A stretch of DNA of 64,000 nucleotides from an uncultured Chroococcidiopsis sp. GTDB taxonomy: Bacteria > Cyanobacteriota > Cyanobacteriia > Cyanobacteriales > Chroococcidiopsidaceae. Position 1 is the first letter of the stretch. The number at the start of each line of letters is the position of its first letter. This document shows positions 47,052 to 55,114 of the stretch, piece by piece. The stretch is from positions 230,547-294,546 of the forward strand of contig CAXTYC010000002.1 in the NCBI GenBank assembly GCA_964248365.1, read 5' to 3'. Both the position numbers and the translations under genes were made by a program. The notes below the pieces were generated by a model. That model made no database searches, was not told the DNA's origin, and saw only the letters and a program-made list of their open reading frames with translations.

Positions 47052-47861
47052 ATGAAAGAGCAAGCGGATCTGAATGAATATAAACAGCAAGTAATAGCAG
47101 ACTTCAATGGGAGAACTAACTATGACAATGAATTTCGTTACCGTTTTGCTGATCCTCTAGTCAAGTTAGCCCAACTACAAAAAGGACAACACGTTCTAGA
47201 TATAGCAACAGGTACAGGTATAGTAGCGATCGCAGCTGCACAAATTGTAGGTTCTGAAGGTAAAGTAGTTGGGGTGGATATCTCCTCTGGTATGCTTGCT
47301 CAAGCACAACGAAAAGTAGAAGCAGCAGGTTTACAAAACGTTGAATTAATCGAAGCAGATGCAGATTATCTAAACTTTCCCAATGACAGCTTTGATGCGA
47401 TTTTGTGTTCTAGTGCGATCGCCTACTTAACAGATATTCCCGCTTCCCTACGACAATGGTATCGCTTCACCAAACCAGGTGGAATTGTAGCTTTTTCTTG
47501 CCTTGCCCAAACAGCTATTACCGCGTCGATCTTATTTCGGTCAAAGGCGCAAAAATATGGTATTACAATTCCTAATCCCAACGAAATCCTTGGTACACCC
47601 GAAAAATGCCAAAACCTGCTACAGTCAGCAGGCTTTCAACAGATCAAAATAGTAACACAACAGTTTGGCGGTTATTTTACCACTGCACAACACGCTTGGC
47701 AAGCAAATGCTAATAGTGCCTATGGTTTTCAAGTGTTTCAACTTGCACCAGACAAATTAGAGCAACTAAAAGCCGAATACATTGCACAAATTGAAGCTTT
47801 AGCCACCGATCCCGAATTCGGGAATGATTTTACCACCTTCTTTGTTTTAGCTCACAAGTAG
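47052..47861 (+). CDS. Class I SAM-dependent methyltransferase (UbiE-like)
   Basis: VLDIATGTG, VVGVDIS.GML, SFDAILC, KPGG. Confidence 0.9.
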   Translation: MKEQADLNEYKQQVIADFNGRTNYDNEFRYRFADPLVKLAQLQKGQHVLDIATGTGIVAIAAAQIVGSEGKVVGVDISSGMLAQAQRKVEAAGLQNVELIEADADYLNFPNDSFDAILCSSAIAYLTDIPASLRQWYRFTKPGGIVAFSCLAQTAITASILFRSKAQKYGITIPNPNEILGTPEKCQNLLQSAGFQQIKIVTQQFGGYFTTAQHAWQANANSAYGFQVFQLAPDKLEQLKAEYIAQIEALATDPEFGNDFTTFFVLAHK

Positions 47862-48182: not shown

Positions 48183-48710
48183 CTATGAACTACTTTGCCC
48201 ACTTAATGGGGCTTCGATCTTCTCGTGTTCACCTAAATTATCAATCGGCGTACCCGTAATAACCGACTTCAAAAAGCCTACTAGACGCACAACTTTGCTA
48301 GATGGTGAATCCCAGTATTCGGCTTTATTAACGCTAACCTTCAGTAGTGCCAGATTTGGATCTTCCAATCCTTGGGGAAACCAGGCTTTGAACAGAGGAT
48401 TCCACAATTGTTCTATTTTAGAGCGATCGCGCACAAGCGTTGCAGTACCCGATACAGAAACATACTTTTGTTTATCTGGTTCGGCGTAACTAACGTTAAC
48501 GTGTTGATCGTGTTCAACTTCATGAACTTTAGGTGCATCGGCTGAGGTAAAAAACCACAAATCGCCATCATACTCGACTTCTTGCGTTGCCATCGGACGA
48601 CTGCGTAAACTGCCATCATCCTCAATCGTCGTCAGCATAGCAAACCTGATATCTTTGATCAATTCACGCAACTTCTTGATGTTTTCTTCGTGGTTGTGAT
48701 TTTCTGTCAT
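48183..48710 (-). CDS. Pyridoxamine 5'-phosphate oxidase-like / general stress protein 26 family
   Basis: AMLTT...LRSRPM, LWFFT, VNVSY, YVSVSGTA, WFPQGLEDPNLALLKV..AEYWD. Confidence 0.9.
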   Translation of the reverse strand: MTENHNHEENIKKLRELIKDIRFAMLTTIEDDGSLRSRPMATQEVEYDGDLWFFTSADAPKVHEVEHDQHVNVSYAEPDKQKYVSVSGTATLVRDRSKIEQLWNPLFKAWFPQGLEDPNLALLKVSVNKAEYWDSPSSKVVRLVGFLKSVITGTPIDNLGEHEKIEAPLSGQSSS

Positions 48711-48819: not shown

Positions 48820-49509
48820 CTAATTATCACTTTGCCGATTCCCCAACCACTTCCAGACAATTGGTAACAGAGATACCACTGCTAGCACACCCAAACCGCC
48901 TACCAGGGGTAATGGTGCGCCACCCGTTGCAGCTTCTAATCCACCGTATCCCAGCCAAGTGTAGGCAAAAGTTCCTGGTACAATTCCAATTAAAGTTGCC
49001 CCTACGTAAGCTGGTAGAGCAATAGGTGTAAGTCCAAGTAAATAATTAACAGCAATAAATGGAAAGATGGGAGAAAGCCGAATTGAGAGAACAAACCAAA
49101 AACCGTCTTGTTCAATTCCTTGACGCAAAAAGGGAAGGAGATCGCCTTTTTCAAATTGCTGTCTCGCCCAATTTCCTGCGATGAAACGGGCGATTAAAAA
49201 TGCGCCTGTCGCCCCCAATGTAGCGCCCACCACCGTCCATAAAGTTCCGAACACAGTGCCAAATATTGCCCCTGCCCAGAGAGTTAATATTGAAGCAGGA
49301 AAGGCAAGAATGGTGGCGATCGCGTAAATTAAAATAAATCCTATAGGTGCAATTCCCGCTTGTTTTTGTAATAAGCGTATATTTTCAGGTTTAATCCAAG
49401 TAGCAATTGGTGTTAATTTGAATCCGATTAAAGCAACTATAATTAACATTGCTCCAATTAGCGATCGTACCCATAAATATTTATTGTTTGAATCTTGTTT
49501 TTTTAACAC
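48820..49509 (-). CDS. TVP38/TMEM64 (DedA/SNARE-associated) membrane protein
   Basis: FPASILTLWAGAIFG..FGT...GATLGATGAFLIARF, RLSPIFPF..VNYLLGLT, T.IGIVPGT. Confidence 0.92.
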   Translation of the reverse strand: MLKKQDSNNKYLWVRSLIGAMLIIVALIGFKLTPIATWIKPENIRLLQKQAGIAPIGFILIYAIATILAFPASILTLWAGAIFGTVFGTLWTVVGATLGATGAFLIARFIAGNWARQQFEKGDLLPFLRQGIEQDGFWFVLSIRLSPIFPFIAVNYLLGLTPIALPAYVGATLIGIVPGTFAYTWLGYGGLEAATGGAPLPLVGGLGVLAVVSLLPIVWKWLGNRQSDN

Positions 49510-49612
49510 ATTCGTTGTATTCTATTTATAATTGCTTGCCAGATATTTATATATTCAATATTTCTTGTAGGGTGGGCATTGGTGGCTAAGCATACTCGTC
49601 GATCGCATCTGA

Positions 49613-50599
49613 CTACACCAAAGCACCACCACAGCTAGAACCACTTCCTGCGGTGCAACCATAGCAATAAGGTGCAGTTTGTATCTCATCAATTAAATTC
49701 AAAGTTCCAGCCGCCAACAACTTGCCAACCGTTAAAGTTTCTCCATCACGAGTTAAGGCAGGCAAATTCATCATCTGGTTAAAGTCACAATCGTAAATGT
49801 TGCCCAGATAGTCTACAGAAATTTCATCTTTGCACATTAAATGCTCAACTGTACCAGGATTAAAATTTGACTCTAAAAACTGCAAGTAAGGAGCATATAT
49901 TTTCTTGCGTTGTAAATGTGTCAACGTGCGTCCAACTGGTATATTAGTAATAGTAAATAGGTTGTTAAATACAATGTTAAATTTTTCTTGCAAGAAAGTT
50001 TTGTAATCTTGTTCTAATTTTTTTTGTTCTGGGGTTAGGGAAAAGTTCTCACTATTAGGCAATTGGGGATTGTACACCAAATCTAAAATTAAATCCTCTT
50101 CTTTTCCATAGCCCAAGTTATTTAGCCATTGCAGTGCTTTAATTGAAGCATCAAATACTCCTATTCCTCGCAGCTTATCAACATTATCTGCTAAATAGCA
50201 GGGCAAAGAAGCAACTATTCTTAGCTTATTGTGAGCGCAATATTCAGGAATATCACCAAATCCAGGCTCAAAATAGATAGTTAAATTCGACCTAACAATT
50301 ACTTGTTTACCTGTAGATCGTGCTGCTTCTACTATTGGTTTGAAGCCATAATTCATCTCTGGTGCGCCACCAGTAAGATCGACAATTTTAATTTCGGGAA
50401 ATTGATAAATTAGCTCAATTATTTTTTGACAAATTTCTGGGGAAAGTTCTTCAGTTCGTTTTGGTCCTGCTTCTACATGACAGTGACTACAAGCAAGGTT
50501 ACAACGTTTGCCCAGATTAATTTGTAAAACCTTGATTTTGCTTTTAGTTAAAGGGGAATTTAACTTTTTTTTAAAAGGTGTTACTGCTGTTTGAATCAT
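49613..50599 (-). CDS. arsS: Arsenosugar biosynthesis radical SAM protein
   Basis: LQINLGKRCNLACSHCHVEAGP (C33/C37/C40), DLTGGAPE, ASLPCY, YDCDFNQM, C-terminal CYGCTAGSGSSCGGAL; linked to arsM. Confidence 0.9.
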   Translation of the reverse strand: MIQTAVTPFKKKLNSPLTKSKIKVLQINLGKRCNLACSHCHVEAGPKRTEELSPEICQKIIELIYQFPEIKIVDLTGGAPEMNYGFKPIVEAARSTGKQVIVRSNLTIYFEPGFGDIPEYCAHNKLRIVASLPCYLADNVDKLRGIGVFDASIKALQWLNNLGYGKEEDLILDLVYNPQLPNSENFSLTPEQKKLEQDYKTFLQEKFNIVFNNLFTITNIPVGRTLTHLQRKKIYAPYLQFLESNFNPGTVEHLMCKDEISVDYLGNIYDCDFNQMMNLPALTRDGETLTVGKLLAAGTLNLIDEIQTAPYCYGCTAGSGSSCGGALV

Positions 50600-50630
50600 A
50601 TCACTTGTGAATTTTATATTTGGGTTGGAT

Positions 50631-53210
50631 TCACACTTTTTTCACTCGACAAGCAAAACATTTATAAGCTTGCTGACCGGAAAGGTTGTCATAATACCTG
50701 TCATCTAATAAGTAATTGGCGGCTTCATAGTAGGGAGTTCCGAGTTCTTCAGCCATTTTTTGCATAGGTCCGAACGTATGAGGAACGAAGATTGTATCCT
50801 CACGAATACCTTGCCAAATTTGCGCTGAACCAGTGATAGAACCTCTGGGACTTTCTACAGCGATCGCATCTCCACTTTGAATCCCCGCCGCCGCAGCCGC
50901 TTTGGGGTGGATTTGAATTAGACGAATACCGTTCATTTGCTTGCCAGTATATGTCCACTGTGTAACTGTATGGAAATGCACTACACTCGGTCTACCAATC
51001 ATCCCCATCAGTGGGTACTCTTTGTTTTCCCCTGAAGACACTTTGCCTAACTTAACCTTTCGGGTTAAGGCTTGCGGATTTATTGGGTTTGCTACGAATT
51101 GCTGAGTATATTCTATAGTTGGATTCTTACCTGTCACCTCTGGATGAGTGTAAAAGATCGGTAGGGCTGAGTGTCCAGCCGTCGCCAACTTTTTATCTAG
51201 TTCTAAAGTATAGATTTCTACTTTGCCGCTAGGAGTTAGGAAGCGCCTAATCTTGTTTTGTGGATTGATGGCTGCTGTTCCCTGAACACCAGTATCTTGA
51301 CTCGCACTTTCGGCGTTTCTCAGCGCCAGCCCTTTTACCGCCTCATACCAAGAGGGATGATCTAAATATAACGTGCTAACCCCAGGATGATCTAGGGTAG
51401 GACAAGGCCAGCGCAAAGGTTCTACACGCGCCTCCAGACGTTCTTGAGTCATGCCGCCCATGCCTGGAGTATGCTTGACAAAGGTTGCCCAAAGATTACG
51501 GTAGTCTTTCCATTCTAGGGGAAAATTTTGTGTCCAGTAGGAGGGGGGATTCTTTTTGTCCAATTTAGCCATAGTGTGTGCCAGATCGATCCAAATCTCC
51601 CAATCAGGTTTTGACTCTCCTAAACGGGCTACTGCTTGCTTTTGCCACCGAATTGCGCGATCATCCCGCCGCATATAAACAGTTTCCATTTCAAAACCGC
51701 TACAAACGGGTAAGATAATATCAGCGTAATAGGCAGCTTCTTCCATAAATAAGCCAGTGTAGGCGTAGAAATCTAGCTGGCTGAAGGCAGCTTTTACCTT
51801 ATTTGTATTGGCACAAGCAACCAGGGGATTACCCTGAGTAACGATCGCTTTCAACTTATAGGGAGAAGCAGTTAAAATCGATTCGGCAAAATAATCTGGT
51901 CCTACAGGCAAAGCCACGTCTTTTTTGGGAGAATTACCCTCGATCGCTGGCAAGTTCAATGCCCCAGGCCAAGTATTGTGCATGAAATTGCAGCCGCCGC
52001 CATTCACGCCAATATTACCTGTCACAGCCGCTAAAAATGCCAATGTTCGATAAGTATCAAAGGCGTTTAGTTGATGAGAGATGCCAGCATTACAGAAAAT
52101 TGCCGCAGGTTTGGTTGTAGCGTAATCTTGGGCTATTTGTTTAATTTTGTTAGCTGGTACTCCTGTAACCTTTTCTGCCCATTGGGGTGTGTATTTGTGC
52201 TTTTGGAGATGTTTTTTCAATTCATCGAACCCCAGCACCCATTTTTGCACAAAGGCTTTATCGTGCAAATTCTTGTCCAAAATGTGGTATAGCATAGCTA
52301 GAACCAAAGCTTGGTCAGTATGCGGTTTGGGTGCAATCCATTCGTCTGCTTGCTTTCCTGTGGGTGTCAGCCGAGGATCGACAACTACTAACTTTGCCTT
52401 CGTTTGGGCGCGACTCCTGAGTAGATAGCTAAAGGTGACTGGATGAGTTTCTGCTTGATTTGTGCCTAAAAATAGAAAATACTTAGCACTGCCCAAATCT
52501 TCTTTTCCCGTAGCCCCATCCTTACCGTAGCCGTTGGTGAAATTCCCTAGCCCAAAAGTCCATGCTAAAGCATTTCCGCCAGCATCGTTACACACTGGAC
52601 CAACATCAGTATTATTTGGACTACCCAAAAGAGTGAAAAAACGCTCTACCAGCGAACCTGTGCCGCGTGGTAATCTACCAGAAGTTTTGTTAGCGATCGC
52701 CCGTGCTTCATTAGCATCGCGCAACGCCAGGAATTTGGCGGCAATTGTTTCTAAAGCTTCATCCCACGATATCGGCTCAAATTTAGAATCAGGGGAACCT
52801 TTAGCGCCTGCTACCCGCTTCATCGGACGTGTCAGACGAAAGCGATTATAAACCAGTTGCGTCATCATCGGACCTTTAACGCACAAGCCCCCTGCTTGGA
52901 CGGGATCTTCGGTTTCACCTACAACATTAATGATGCGTCCTTGTTTAAGATGAACTTTGAGGCGACATAGACTGTTGCAGAATTGACAAGCACTGTCTAC
53001 AATCGTATCCGGCTGTAAAGCCCCTGAAGAACTAGTAAAGTCGTATTCGGCGCTAGGAGAATTTGTTGCCGGATAATAACCGTCTGTTGTAGCATCAGCT
53101 TTAGTTGAGGAAAGCAAATTTGGGGCGGCAAGTGCTGTACCAATCGCAGCACCTTGCATAAAACCCCGCCGTGAAATGCCCTGGTGCTGATGCTTCTTTT
53201 TGCTTTTCAT
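50631..53210 (-). CDS. Tat-exported molybdopterin (Mo/W-bisPGD, DMSO reductase superfamily) oxidoreductase catalytic subunit with N-terminal [4Fe-4S] site
   Basis: SRRGFMQ twin-Arg and ADA cleavage site. C75-x2-C78-x3-C82-x27-C110; RLTRPMKR, ISWDEAL, VVVDPR.T, ADIILP, TPSGKVEI, IHP..A...GI..GD...VES.RG. Confidence 0.93.
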   Translation of the reverse strand: MKSKKKHQHQGISRRGFMQGAAIGTALAAPNLLSSTKADATTDGYYPATNSPSAEYDFTSSSGALQPDTIVDSACQFCNSLCRLKVHLKQGRIINVVGETEDPVQAGGLCVKGPMMTQLVYNRFRLTRPMKRVAGAKGSPDSKFEPISWDEALETIAAKFLALRDANEARAIANKTSGRLPRGTGSLVERFFTLLGSPNNTDVGPVCNDAGGNALAWTFGLGNFTNGYGKDGATGKEDLGSAKYFLFLGTNQAETHPVTFSYLLRSRAQTKAKLVVVDPRLTPTGKQADEWIAPKPHTDQALVLAMLYHILDKNLHDKAFVQKWVLGFDELKKHLQKHKYTPQWAEKVTGVPANKIKQIAQDYATTKPAAIFCNAGISHQLNAFDTYRTLAFLAAVTGNIGVNGGGCNFMHNTWPGALNLPAIEGNSPKKDVALPVGPDYFAESILTASPYKLKAIVTQGNPLVACANTNKVKAAFSQLDFYAYTGLFMEEAAYYADIILPVCSGFEMETVYMRRDDRAIRWQKQAVARLGESKPDWEIWIDLAHTMAKLDKKNPPSYWTQNFPLEWKDYRNLWATFVKHTPGMGGMTQERLEARVEPLRWPCPTLDHPGVSTLYLDHPSWYEAVKGLALRNAESASQDTGVQGTAAINPQNKIRRFLTPSGKVEIYTLELDKKLATAGHSALPIFYTHPEVTGKNPTIEYTQQFVANPINPQALTRKVKLGKVSSGENKEYPLMGMIGRPSVVHFHTVTQWTYTGKQMNGIRLIQIHPKAAAAAGIQSGDAIAVESPRGSITGSAQIWQGIREDTIFVPHTFGPMQKMAEELGTPYYEAANYLLDDRYYDNLSGQQAYKCFACRVKKV

Positions 53211-53221
53211 TTACAGTATCC

Positions 53222-54190
53222 TTAACAGCAACCACCGCCGTTATAGTACCAGGTAGAATCTGTAATTAATATCTCTTTTGGCTGTGATGCTGCGAGTTTA
53301 GCCGCTGTCTTATCACATACTGCTGCTGGTACGCCCCGTTGTAAAATATGCCCAGCCGAGTCATCAAACACAGATTCTAAACCTGTATAAATAGCAGTCT
53401 TACCAGTGAAAATGCAAGCACCATCGGGGGGAATGGGAACTTTGAAAGACACCGAATCAAGACTTTCTAAAAGCAGATTTTCTTCTAGATTATAAGTATG
53501 ACAATCTAGCAAACGATAAGGGCGACGGGCGCGAATTTCAATTTGTCCAAAGCCAGCATCAACAATTCGTTGAGTATATTCTTGATAGGTAAGTGCGCCA
53601 GATAGACACATGGCGCGTAGGCGTTCATCTTGTTGCAGATGGGTAGGGATGGGACGAGTAGCGATCGGATCGCTCATCTGCAAGCGTCCGCCTGGTTTTA
53701 GCACTCGATATGCTTCTTGCAAAGCACGAGTTAAATCTTCCGGTTGGAAGATGTTGAATAAACAATTTTGTGCCAATACATCGACGGAAGCATCAGGAAC
53801 AGGTAGATTAAATGCATCACCTGCGCGAATCTCGACAAAGCTGGTGTCAAACCAGGGGTTATCTTCGACGGCACAAGCCAAGTTACTAGATGCCGCTTCA
53901 CGCATCGCTGCAACGGGATCGACAGCAATCACACCACCAGGACGGCGGGAAAAATAAGCAAATTGCAATGCTTCTAAACCACCGCCAACGCCTACATATA
54001 AAACAGTCGGGGAGTTAACAAGTTCTGCTGGGTGGACAGTCGTACCACAGCCATAGTTCATTTCCTGCATTTTACAGGGAATTTTTAGCCCTGGTAATTG
54101 CAGAGAACCGCTTTGAACGCAGCACAAACCAACTTCGGGTGTTTGTGCGACTTCGGAGTAAAATTGTGCAGTTGTTTCTAAATAGCTCAT
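53222..54190 (-). CDS. arsM: Arsenite S-adenosylmethionine methyltransferase (cyanobacterial arsenosugar type)
   Basis: GLCC, NYGCG (C48), YVGVGGG SAM motif, QNCLFN (C143), AMCLSGAL (C195), C-terminal GGGCC. Confidence 0.92.
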   Translation of the reverse strand: MSYLETTAQFYSEVAQTPEVGLCCVQSGSLQLPGLKIPCKMQEMNYGCGTTVHPAELVNSPTVLYVGVGGGLEALQFAYFSRRPGGVIAVDPVAAMREAASSNLACAVEDNPWFDTSFVEIRAGDAFNLPVPDASVDVLAQNCLFNIFQPEDLTRALQEAYRVLKPGGRLQMSDPIATRPIPTHLQQDERLRAMCLSGALTYQEYTQRIVDAGFGQIEIRARRPYRLLDCHTYNLEENLLLESLDSVSFKVPIPPDGACIFTGKTAIYTGLESVFDDSAGHILQRGVPAAVCDKTAAKLAASQPKEILITDSTWYYNGGGCC

Positions 54191-54266
54191 ACAATTTTGG
54201 ATTGGTAGTTGGTAATTGGTAATTGGTAGTTGGTAGTTGCTTTTTAATTACCGATTAGCCTTGATT

Positions 54267-54938: not shown

Positions 54939-55114
54939 AGTGAGGGGGAGAGGGAGAGGGGGAGAGTGGGAATCAGGGGAGAGTGGGAGAGTGGGAATCA
55001 GGGGAGATGGACAAGATGAAAACTATTCTGTCTTCTGTCTCCTGACTTCTGACTCCACAACTCCTGACTTCTGACGTGGAGACTTCTGACTTCTCACCTC
55101 CTCACCCCTTCTAA

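Follow-up and report, generated by a model that had tools for sequence, protein, structure and literature searches.

The window analysed here, a 64,000-nt stretch of the cyanobacterial genome G000 (99.97% complete), carries an arsenosugar gene cassette in which arsM and arsS are parted by one gene alone, encoding a molybdoenzyme with a predicted twin-arginine translocation (Tat) signal. A preliminary description of this DNA had reported four co-oriented genes, separated by 11 nt (arsM and the molybdoenzyme gene), 31 nt (the molybdoenzyme gene and arsS) and 103 nt (arsS and TVP38), and the open reading frames (ORFs) were found exactly there. All genes of the locus lie on the minus strand, and its features are as follows:

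53222..54190, minus strand: arsM, arsenosugar-type arsenite methyltransferase, 322 aa (NF038099, 583 bits, cutoff 400)
50631..53210, minus strand: molybdenum-bis(pyranopterin guanine dinucleotide) (Mo-bisPGD)/[4Fe-4S] oxidoreductase with predicted Tat signal, 859 aa, P0001 (PF04879, PF00384, PF01568)
53160..53174, minus strand: twin-arginine motif S13-R14-R15-G16-F17 of the molybdoenzyme (translation)
52881..52988, minus strand: predicted [4Fe-4S] cysteines C75, C78, C82 and C110 of the molybdoenzyme (translation and PF04879)
52590..52592, minus strand: Cys207, candidate molybdenum ligand within GPVCNDAG of the molybdoenzyme (alignment to the Cys of ArrA, 6cz7)
49613..50599, minus strand: arsS, radical-SAM arsenosugar enzyme, 328 aa (TIGR04167, 418.6 bits, cutoff 300; PF12345, PF04055)
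48820..49509, minus strand: TVP38/VTT (DedA-superfamily) membrane protein, 229 aa (PF09335, 83.9 bits)
48183..48710, minus strand: pyridoxamine-5'-phosphate-oxidase (PNPOx)-like FMN-binding protein, downstream neighbour whose membership in the unit is uncertain (PF16242, 202 bits)

ArsM and ArsS both score above the cutoffs of their models, and upon inspection neither sequence has a signal peptide. The locus is flanked upstream by plsY and downstream by the PNPOx-like gene, which is also kept 3' of arsS in the loci L089, L095 and L099, the first of which likewise keeps TVP38 behind arsS. Judging by gene spacing, co-transcription of arsM, the molybdoenzyme gene and arsS is plausible; a scan of the junctions for promoter- or terminator-like sites was uninformative (the counts equalled those of shuffled sequence and none stood out). 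Two RNA runs contain 7-8% of the sampled words, in both cases as contigs of relatives, and a metatranscriptome contig of 758 nt (59 differences, from a relative ~92% identical) spans the junction between the molybdoenzyme gene and arsS, with further contigs of the same library spanning much of the molybdoenzyme gene. We consider them a weak hint of expression, as contigs cannot prove one transcript and the library may include DNA; the uncovered parts carry no meaning, and neither expression level nor strand can be read from such cover.

The molybdoenzyme and its family

The presence of a Tat-exported Mo-bisPGD enzyme between arsM and arsS, as proposed in the preliminary description, agrees with the domains and motifs of the protein. 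The three Pfam domains of the Mo-bisPGD (dimethyl sulfoxide reductase) superfamily were recovered above their cutoffs (PF04879, 51.7 bits; PF00384, 175.2 bits; PF01568, 62.5 bits), a CxxCxxxC...C motif spans residues 75-110, and Cys207 is a putative ligand to molybdenum (cofactor binding being predicted). The N-terminus (SRRGFMQGAAIGTALAAP) unites the SRRGF motif, of the S/T-R-R-x-F-L type, with a hydrophobic stretch, and export via Tat (i.e. an extracytoplasmic location) is predicted.

In an NCBIfam scan no model attained its cutoff with this protein. The full-length sequence is nearest to formate dehydrogenase (FDH) and PhsA/PsrA-type enzymes, with 319.5 bits for the Fdh-alpha model TIGR01591 (cutoff 666.25) and 278.9 bits for the PhsA/PsrA thiosulfate/polysulfide reductase model NF012032 (cutoff 694), followed by NasC (260 bits, cutoff 1100), ArrA (NF041714, 196.6 bits, cutoff 1600) and AioA (TIGR02693, 75.8 bits, cutoff 359); there was no ArxA model among the matches listed (25 of 28 NCBIfam families). 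The AlphaFold2 model (pLDDT 78.5, pTM 0.83) has the canonical Mo-bisPGD fold, and Foldseek returned FDH, NapA, ArrA and PsrA alike with a probability of 1.00 and an identity of 21-23%. Being about equidistant from these four, the fold permits no assignment of substrate.

When residues of about 121-303 (the active-site segment) were searched alone, the best match among solved structures in the Protein Data Bank was ArrA (6cz7). The two proteins have in common the motifs GSPNN...VC, GR (R179) and GY (Y228). Cys207 aligns to an ArrA cysteine that we take to be the molybdenum ligand; around it, ArrA has Arg, Tyr, His, Ser, Lys and Tyr residues that presumably bind arsenate, from which the window protein keeps just one Arg and one Tyr (R179 and Y228). 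Formate dehydrogenases have a His after the metal-ligand Cys or selenocysteine (Sec). In our protein the residue after Cys207 is Asn208, which does not vary in the family alignment, so that the Cys/Sec-His dyad of FDH is lacking. Selenocysteine as molybdenum ligand was considered and rejected, since the internal stops of four Planctomycetota members (L010, L011, L036 and L066) are frameshifts elsewhere in metagenome-assembled genomes (MAGs), with no TGA at the position of Cys207.

To judge from these comparisons, the enzyme belongs to a family that fits no named one and is uncharacterised. This family, of roughly 580 or more members, is tight (57-86% identity) and covers six phyla: the 80 genome loci retrieved (57-85% identity) are distributed among Actinomycetota (30), Cyanobacteriota (22), Verrucomicrobiota (10), Planctomycetota (8), Acidobacteriota (8) and Myxococcota (2), and another 53 loci (133 in all) stem from metagenomes, many of these on short contigs. 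In an exhaustive search of 1.84 billion representatives, clustered at 50% identity, the family came up with a single full-length entry (61% identical), beyond which lie sister lineages at 37-45% identity and then the bulk near 33%. None of 12 sequence neighbours run against NCBIfam passes a named model, and as the same is true of the sister lineages P0123, P0125 and P0127, these provide no functional lead.

In an alignment of 28 diverse members (mean column identity 64%) the cysteines C75, C78, C82 and C110, the segment GPVC207NDAG, R179, Y228 and the twin arginines R14 and R15 are invariant, together with four further cysteines (C373, C407, C603 and C854). A Tat-type N-terminus was recognised in all 27 diverse members inspected by hand; the strict expression S/TRRx[FL] recognises it in 60 of 77 proteins of the family, and several of those not recognised are cut short by a contig end. 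The phylogenetic tree was built from 73 loci, the window protein and four G000 paralogues as outgroup, leaving aside the four frameshifted members named above and three proteins shorter than 780 aa (L019, L026 and L068). In it a long stem (1.29) leads to the tight family, within which a cyanobacterial clade (22 rows) and an actinobacterial clade (30 rows) are each recovered with 99% support, and arsenic contexts are scattered across the whole tree. We found no function for the family in the literature searched, which did not reach the bisenarsan papers in JACS 2023 and Chem Pharm Bull 2025; the string 'molybd' is absent from the text of PMC4943196, PMC13728944 and a 2026 regulatory-atlas preprint, and SCO6820 received no mention in the literature searched.

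Arsenic genes around the family

Gene neighbours were annotated by Pfam and NCBIfam, together with a strict clustering (a looser clustering suffered from false ORFs in the high-GC sequences). A specific arsenic marker was found in 33 of the 80 genome loci, a Pst/PiT transporter in 29 and ArsR in 28, as compared with 1, 0 and 0 in 27 control loci of distant molybdoenzymes; ArsM-like genes are near 11 of the 80. Specific markers accompany 24 of the 30 loci of Actinomycetota, 6 of the 10 of Verrucomicrobiota, one of eight in both Planctomycetota and Acidobacteriota, and neither of the two in Myxococcota. An unbiased clustering of the neighbours in all 133 loci returned BsnM/N (16), PHO4 (15, at a median of 7 nt from the molybdoenzyme gene) and ArsR-like proteins (14) at the top, followed by ArsM-like proteins (12), a CTP-synthase-C-like glutamine amidotransferase (GATase; 10), Pst, ArsO-like and outer-membrane-protein-like (7) families and ArsS (6). 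The top neighbour families are thus solely arsenic- or phosphate-related, no competing theme appears, and the recurrent neighbour enzymes are all arsenic-specific (ArsM, ArsS, ArsL, ArsN1, ArsI and BsnM/N). Outside Nostocales arsenic genes recur in the annotation. The 14 ArsR-like neighbours have ELCVCDL-type or C-terminal GCC motifs, which we take to be As(III)-binding sites, and two of them stand beside otherwise orphan Microcoleus copies. The recurrent placement in arsenic gene clusters supports a link between the family and arsenic. The earlier idea of an undescribed arsenic-linked enzyme survives in this general form, carried by three types of organoarsenical clusters, ArsR and Pst/PiT (against 1 of 27 controls), while its more specific part, linkage to arsM and arsS, is mostly absent.

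The first of these types, bisenarsan-type clusters, accounts for 16 of the 80 loci, all of them in actinomycetes, where the molybdoenzyme gene is followed by genes for a 5-enolpyruvylshikimate-3-phosphate-synthase-like (BsnM-like) and a phosphoglycerate-mutase (PGM)-like (BsnN-like) protein. In 10 of the 16 it lies 41-62 nt, or on the wider figure 41-113 nt, upstream of the BsnM-like gene, and all 10 have Pst or PHO4 downstream. The wider order reads major facilitator superfamily (MFS) transporter, CTP-synthase-like protein, molybdoenzyme, BsnM-like, BsnN-like and Pst or PitA, with polyketide synthase, ketosynthase III, DedA, ArsR, ArsO-like, ArsI and ArsK genes around it. The sequence GATase-molybdoenzyme-BsnM-BsnN-Pst of the 16 loci corresponds to SLI1094-SLI1101 in the experimentally linked arseno-organic (bisenarsan) cluster of S. 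lividans, in which SLI1095, listed as an 'anaerobic dehydrogenase' of 840 aa, has SLI1094 on one side and the AroA-like SLI1096 on the other (PMC4943196, Supplementary table 6). Eight loci (L059, L035, L039, L049, L051, L055, L060 and L016) match the position and gene order of SLI_1095 in the bsn cluster of S. lividans / S. coelicolor (MFS, CTP-synthase-like, molybdoenzyme, AroA-like BsnM, PGM-like BsnN, small ORF, Pst), and the L059 protein likewise counts 840 aa; orthology to SLI_1095 is thus proposed from synteny and length. A review proposes that BsnM uses As(V) and assigns roles to BsnM, BsnN and BsnJ, and states, in its part on the S. lividans bsn cluster, that this encodes no SAM-dependent enzyme (PMC12159101); neither section 8 of that review nor Supplementary table 6 of PMC4943196 gives a function for the dehydrogenase.

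The GATase itself (SLI1094 in S. lividans), which resembles the C-terminal part of CTP synthase and matches the '(seleno)protein' model NF004836, was seen in 17 of the 80 loci (e.g., L035:9165-9884 and L059:9017-9889), lying 119-144 nt upstream of the molybdoenzyme gene in eight loci and 299 nt upstream in L016.

An arsinothricin-type set occurs in two Amycolatopsis loci (L033 and L030), where the molybdoenzyme gene abuts a gene for an ArsN1-ArsR fusion, genes for an ATP-grasp protein, ArsR, PHO4 and ArsM are present, and ArsL (505 bits, cutoff 450) is encoded about 6.7 kb downstream. In Verrucomicrobiota the gene keeps company with ArsM-like genes, ArsS (432 bits), PHO4 or Pst, and with nucleoside-hydrolase-like and S-methyl-5-thioribose (MTR)-kinase-like genes, as well as with a gene for a signal-peptide protein ending in ...IVIPF, 27-31 nt upstream.

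Proteins of the last kind (264-276 aa, C-terminal ...IVIPF or ...IVLSF, no Pfam or NCBIfam match) adjoin the molybdoenzyme in seven loci (L071:9183-9977, L065:3895-4725, L031, L064, L110, L121 and L135), at a median of 28 nt upstream, or directly downstream in L031, and their sequences look like small outer-membrane barrels. A verrucomicrobial MAG (L015:3879-15901) clusters ArsS, a ribonucleoside-hydrolase-like protein, an S-methyl-5-thioribose-kinase-like protein, PHO4, an ArsM-like protein and the molybdoenzyme; methionine salvage, taken as a model, makes the hydrolase and the kinase candidate enzymes of the unassigned steps that follow dimethylarsinoyl-adenosine in arsenosugar synthesis. 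DedA/VTT proteins occur in arsenosugar cassette and bisenarsan cluster alike (window 48820-49509, L059:4418-5113, L111 and SLI1090, the last being a DedA gene of the bsn cluster; PMC4943196), which suggests a membrane function shared across organoarsenical pathways.

Proposed oxidation of arsenite and its alternatives

We infer substrate, direction and role of the enzyme from its contexts, and favour (with a probability of roughly 40%) the oxidation of arsenite to arsenate outside the cytoplasm. With export predicted for the enzyme, and with ArsM and ArsS cytoplasmic, it can hardly act between their two steps, and we favour inorganic arsenic as a substrate that it meets outside the cell. The preliminary description had considered a redox step on dimethylarsenate (DMAs(V)) or oxo-arsenosugars that feeds ArsM and ArsS, which finds no support in view of the family-wide Tat signal, of ArsM and ArsS proteins devoid of signal peptides, and of the family's presence in bisenarsan-type clusters, of which that of S. 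lividans is stated in the review to encode no SAM-dependent enzyme (PMC12159101). As the three pathways differ in their organic chemistry, and no such enzyme is reported for the S. lividans bsn cluster, their common substrate should be inorganic arsenic.

In mechanistic terms, periplasmic As(III) would be converted by the enzyme into As(V), the less toxic form, and this would then be excluded from the cell or imported by Pst/PiT-type transporters. Thereby the cell would be protected and the arsenic supply conditioned for the cytoplasmic organoarsenical pathways, that is, for ArsM/ArsS here, for ArsL/ArsM in arsinothricin-type clusters and for the As(V)-using BsnM/BsnN in bisenarsan-type clusters. 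Within the window operon, the molybdoenzyme may handle As(III) outside the cell and ArsM may do so inside. Oxidation of As(III) fits every context, namely the proposed use of As(V) by BsnM, the Pst/PiT genes in the same operons, the nearby ArsR regulators of a kind that senses As(III), and the likeness to aioBA arsenite-oxidase islands, which (according to the relevant passage of PMC3834237) carry pst/pho/phn together with ars genes and provide a precedent. We also count in its favour that ArrA is the best solved match of the active-site segment.

The arsenic resistance genes of the carriers offer a lead in the same direction. Acr3 is absent in all five cyanobacterial genomes with the molybdoenzyme gene or its remnant (G000, G405, G413, G407 and G392) and present in 25 of 37 other relatives, and ArsC occurs in two of the five (G405 and G392). 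Throughout the G000 genome we detected neither Acr3 nor ArsC of any of three types, the sole trace being a 30-bit match to the ArsB superfamily. A more ambitious and more tentative proposal is that the family would constitute a third lineage of arsenite oxidases (single-subunit, Tat-exported and Cys-ligated), acting as a conditioning module for arsenosugar, arsinothricin and bisenarsan pathways in at least four phyla and replacing reduction and export by ArsC-Acr3 in the carrier cyanobacteria.

The preliminary description had stated beforehand that its proposal would fail if the closest homologues mostly occurred without arsM/arsS, and this is literally what the tabulation gave: ArsS is near 3 of the 80 genome loci (L001, L015 and L071; it passes TIGR04167 in the first two) and near one of the 22 cyanobacterial ones. 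Several observations weigh against oxidation of arsenite. A single one of the 22 Cyanobacteriota loci has a specific marker and 21 have none within about 10 kb, the gene of G413 stands solitary beside lepA, and specific markers are found in 7 and markers of either kind in 11 of the 53 metagenome loci (many on short contigs). No conserved redox partner (Rieske, ArrB-like, cytochrome c or CxxCH protein) sits beside the gene in the 133 loci, a NapH-like flavoprotein being near it in L015 alone. At the active site, the His, Ser and Lys positions of ArrA are taken by Val203, Gly204 and Gly212, and its second Tyr by L180. The Acr3 pattern is a lead rather than a test, because the genomes are kin and partly incomplete (72-100% complete). 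Finally, since G000 has no detectable ArsC, no known step would lead from imported As(V) to the As(III) required by ArsM, which in this genome favours the opposite direction.

That direction, in which an exported, periplasmic reductase of As(V), or of methylarsenate (MAs(V)) or DMAs(V), would supply ArsM and ArsS with trivalent substrate, keeps the As(V) reduction of the preliminary description as a rival, moved outside the cell, and we judge it unlikely. Besides the missing ArsC and the ArsM requirement for As(III), it can draw on the closeness of the active-site segment to an arsenate reductase, and Arr-type enzymes are reversible in vitro. Against it stands the operonic company of the gene, as the As(V)-using BsnM and the Pst/PiT importers of 29 of the 80 loci would have their substrate removed; moreover, neither an ArrB/ArrC-like nor a quinol-linked partner is nearby, As(III) made outside a cell without Acr3 looks harmful, and the enzyme does not share the His, Ser and Lys of ArrA.

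An action on something other than arsenic (antimonite, phosphite, or selenium or sulfur oxyanions), with the arsenic placement reflecting co-regulation, seems to us improbable as well. It would account for the members without an arsenic gene nearby (in Nostocales, in many Planctomycetota and Acidobacteriota, and in G413) and for the proximity of the full-length sequence to FDH and PhsA/PsrA-type enzymes; Pst/PiT neighbours would also suit a phosphorus oxyanion, and regulators of the ArsR family sense several metalloids. Yet the recurrent neighbours, whose enzymes are exclusively arsenic-specific, show neither a ptx, htx or phn theme nor one of sulfur or selenium, and the Asn after Cys207 departs from the His of FDH.

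The gene in cyanobacteria and the meaning of the family

Among 401 sampled cyanobacterial genomes the enzyme family was found in two (G000 and G392, from different families), and among 41 relatives the gene is present in three, with one remnant more, while ArsS is present in 39. Eleven loci of relatives were examined, and in nine of these 100-134 nt separate arsM from arsS with nothing in between; the two genes are contiguous in seven loci of the same genus or family, and the same-genus L089 (plsY-arsM-arsS-TVP38-PNPOx) reproduces the order of the window minus the molybdoenzyme gene. In another genus (L097, in the 72% complete G407) the space between arsM and arsS still holds two fragments of the gene, which cover residues 4-32 and 356-420 (the second 86% identical). 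In G392 (L001) the gene is followed by one for an arsenosugar-associated peroxidase-like protein (TIGR04169, 182 bits, cutoff 120) and then by ArsS. Metagenome contigs show it after arsM (L107, 70-nt gap), before arsS (L146 and L151, gaps of 13 and 33 nt) or divergent from arsM-arsS-DedA (L111), and in the same-genus G405 it is on a different contig from arsM-arsS.

Compared with its closest relatives, the gene has 0.09-0.12 nonsynonymous (pN) and 0.70-0.83 synonymous (pS) differences per site, which indicates strong purifying selection on the sequence. The two HIP1 sites noted within it by the preliminary description (50860 and 52693) are real, and 2 sites in 2.6 kb match the density of the 64-kb window (75 sites, 0.45 expected), so that the gene is ordinary for this genome. 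The suggested long residence in cyanobacteria is supported by native HIP1 density, by strong purifying selection and by the decayed copy that a second genus keeps at this position. The gene is hence an accessory one, both old and mobile, which came to lie with arsM/arsS more than once, and no fresh insertion. That it might be a mobile passenger that landed between arsM and arsS, functionally uncoupled from them in this genome, would suit its sporadic occurrence, its varying location (elsewhere in G405 and G413) and the contiguous arsM-arsS of close kin, but is quite unlikely: the insertion point recurs in the G407 remnant, in G392 and in L107, L146 and L151, the gene of L111 is divergent from arsM-arsS-DedA, Verrucomicrobiota combine molybdoenzyme, ArsS and ArsM in a different gene order, and the 11- and 31-nt gaps, the HIP1 density and the purifying selection point to integration.

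Some further observations concern the spacers and surroundings of the cassette. In G413 the 920-nt gap between arsM and arsS holds an opposite-strand SnoaL-like ORF (L185:7392-8090); as this is the same spot as that of the molybdoenzyme gene in G000 and of the remnant in G407, the arsM-arsS spacer is seemingly a recurrent insertion site. In the window, the plsY-arsM spacer contains five tandem heptamer repeats A[CT]TACCA (54201-54239, minus strand), a stretch on which numerous unrelated contigs pile up to very high depth (runs X1 and X2) and which therefore is a dispersed repeat; repeats of the GTCAGAA type and others rich in CTCCC are found upstream of plsY (about 54940-55110). A 269-aa S-adenosylmethionine (SAM) methyltransferase is encoded on the plus strand (47052-47861), its best partial NCBIfam matches being ArsM-type models (all far below cutoff), and L099 has in the same neighbourhood a gene 59% identical to it.

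Set against known systems, the enzyme resembles ArrA and ArxA as a presumably Tat-exported Mo-bisPGD protein with an N-terminal four-Cys FeS cluster, but its identity with ArrA is about 22% overall, its score for NF041714 stays far below the cutoff, and no ArrB/ArxB FeS subunit gene is near it (its neighbours being arsM and arsS). With AioAB it would share the periplasmic oxidation of As(III), in addition to the island likeness mentioned above; unlike AioAB, it has no Rieske AioB gene nearby. In AioA the cluster is of the 3Fe-4S type and molybdenum has no ligand from the protein, whereas the window enzyme has a predicted four-Cys cluster and a candidate Cys ligand. In Synechocystis, arsM and arsS are neighbours and reported to be co-transcribed (Xue et al., as cited in a passage of bioRxiv 10.1101/2022.09.23.509062), while in the window the 2.6-kb molybdoenzyme gene stands between them.

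In our view the enzyme would be a molybdoenzyme that takes part in arsenic metabolism yet belongs to none of the Aio, Arr and Arx families. To our knowledge, these three are the only types of molybdoenzymes known to cycle inorganic arsenic. If the proposal is true, an additional widespread family changes how arsenic redox potential is to be read from genomes and metagenomes, since its carriers (soil actinomycetes, Verrucomicrobiota, Acidobacteriota, Planctomycetota and some cyanobacteria) would escape the aioA, arrA and arxA markers. A hitherto unexplained gene of the bisenarsan cluster would likewise gain a role, and three organoarsenical pathways would be linked by one extracytoplasmic step.

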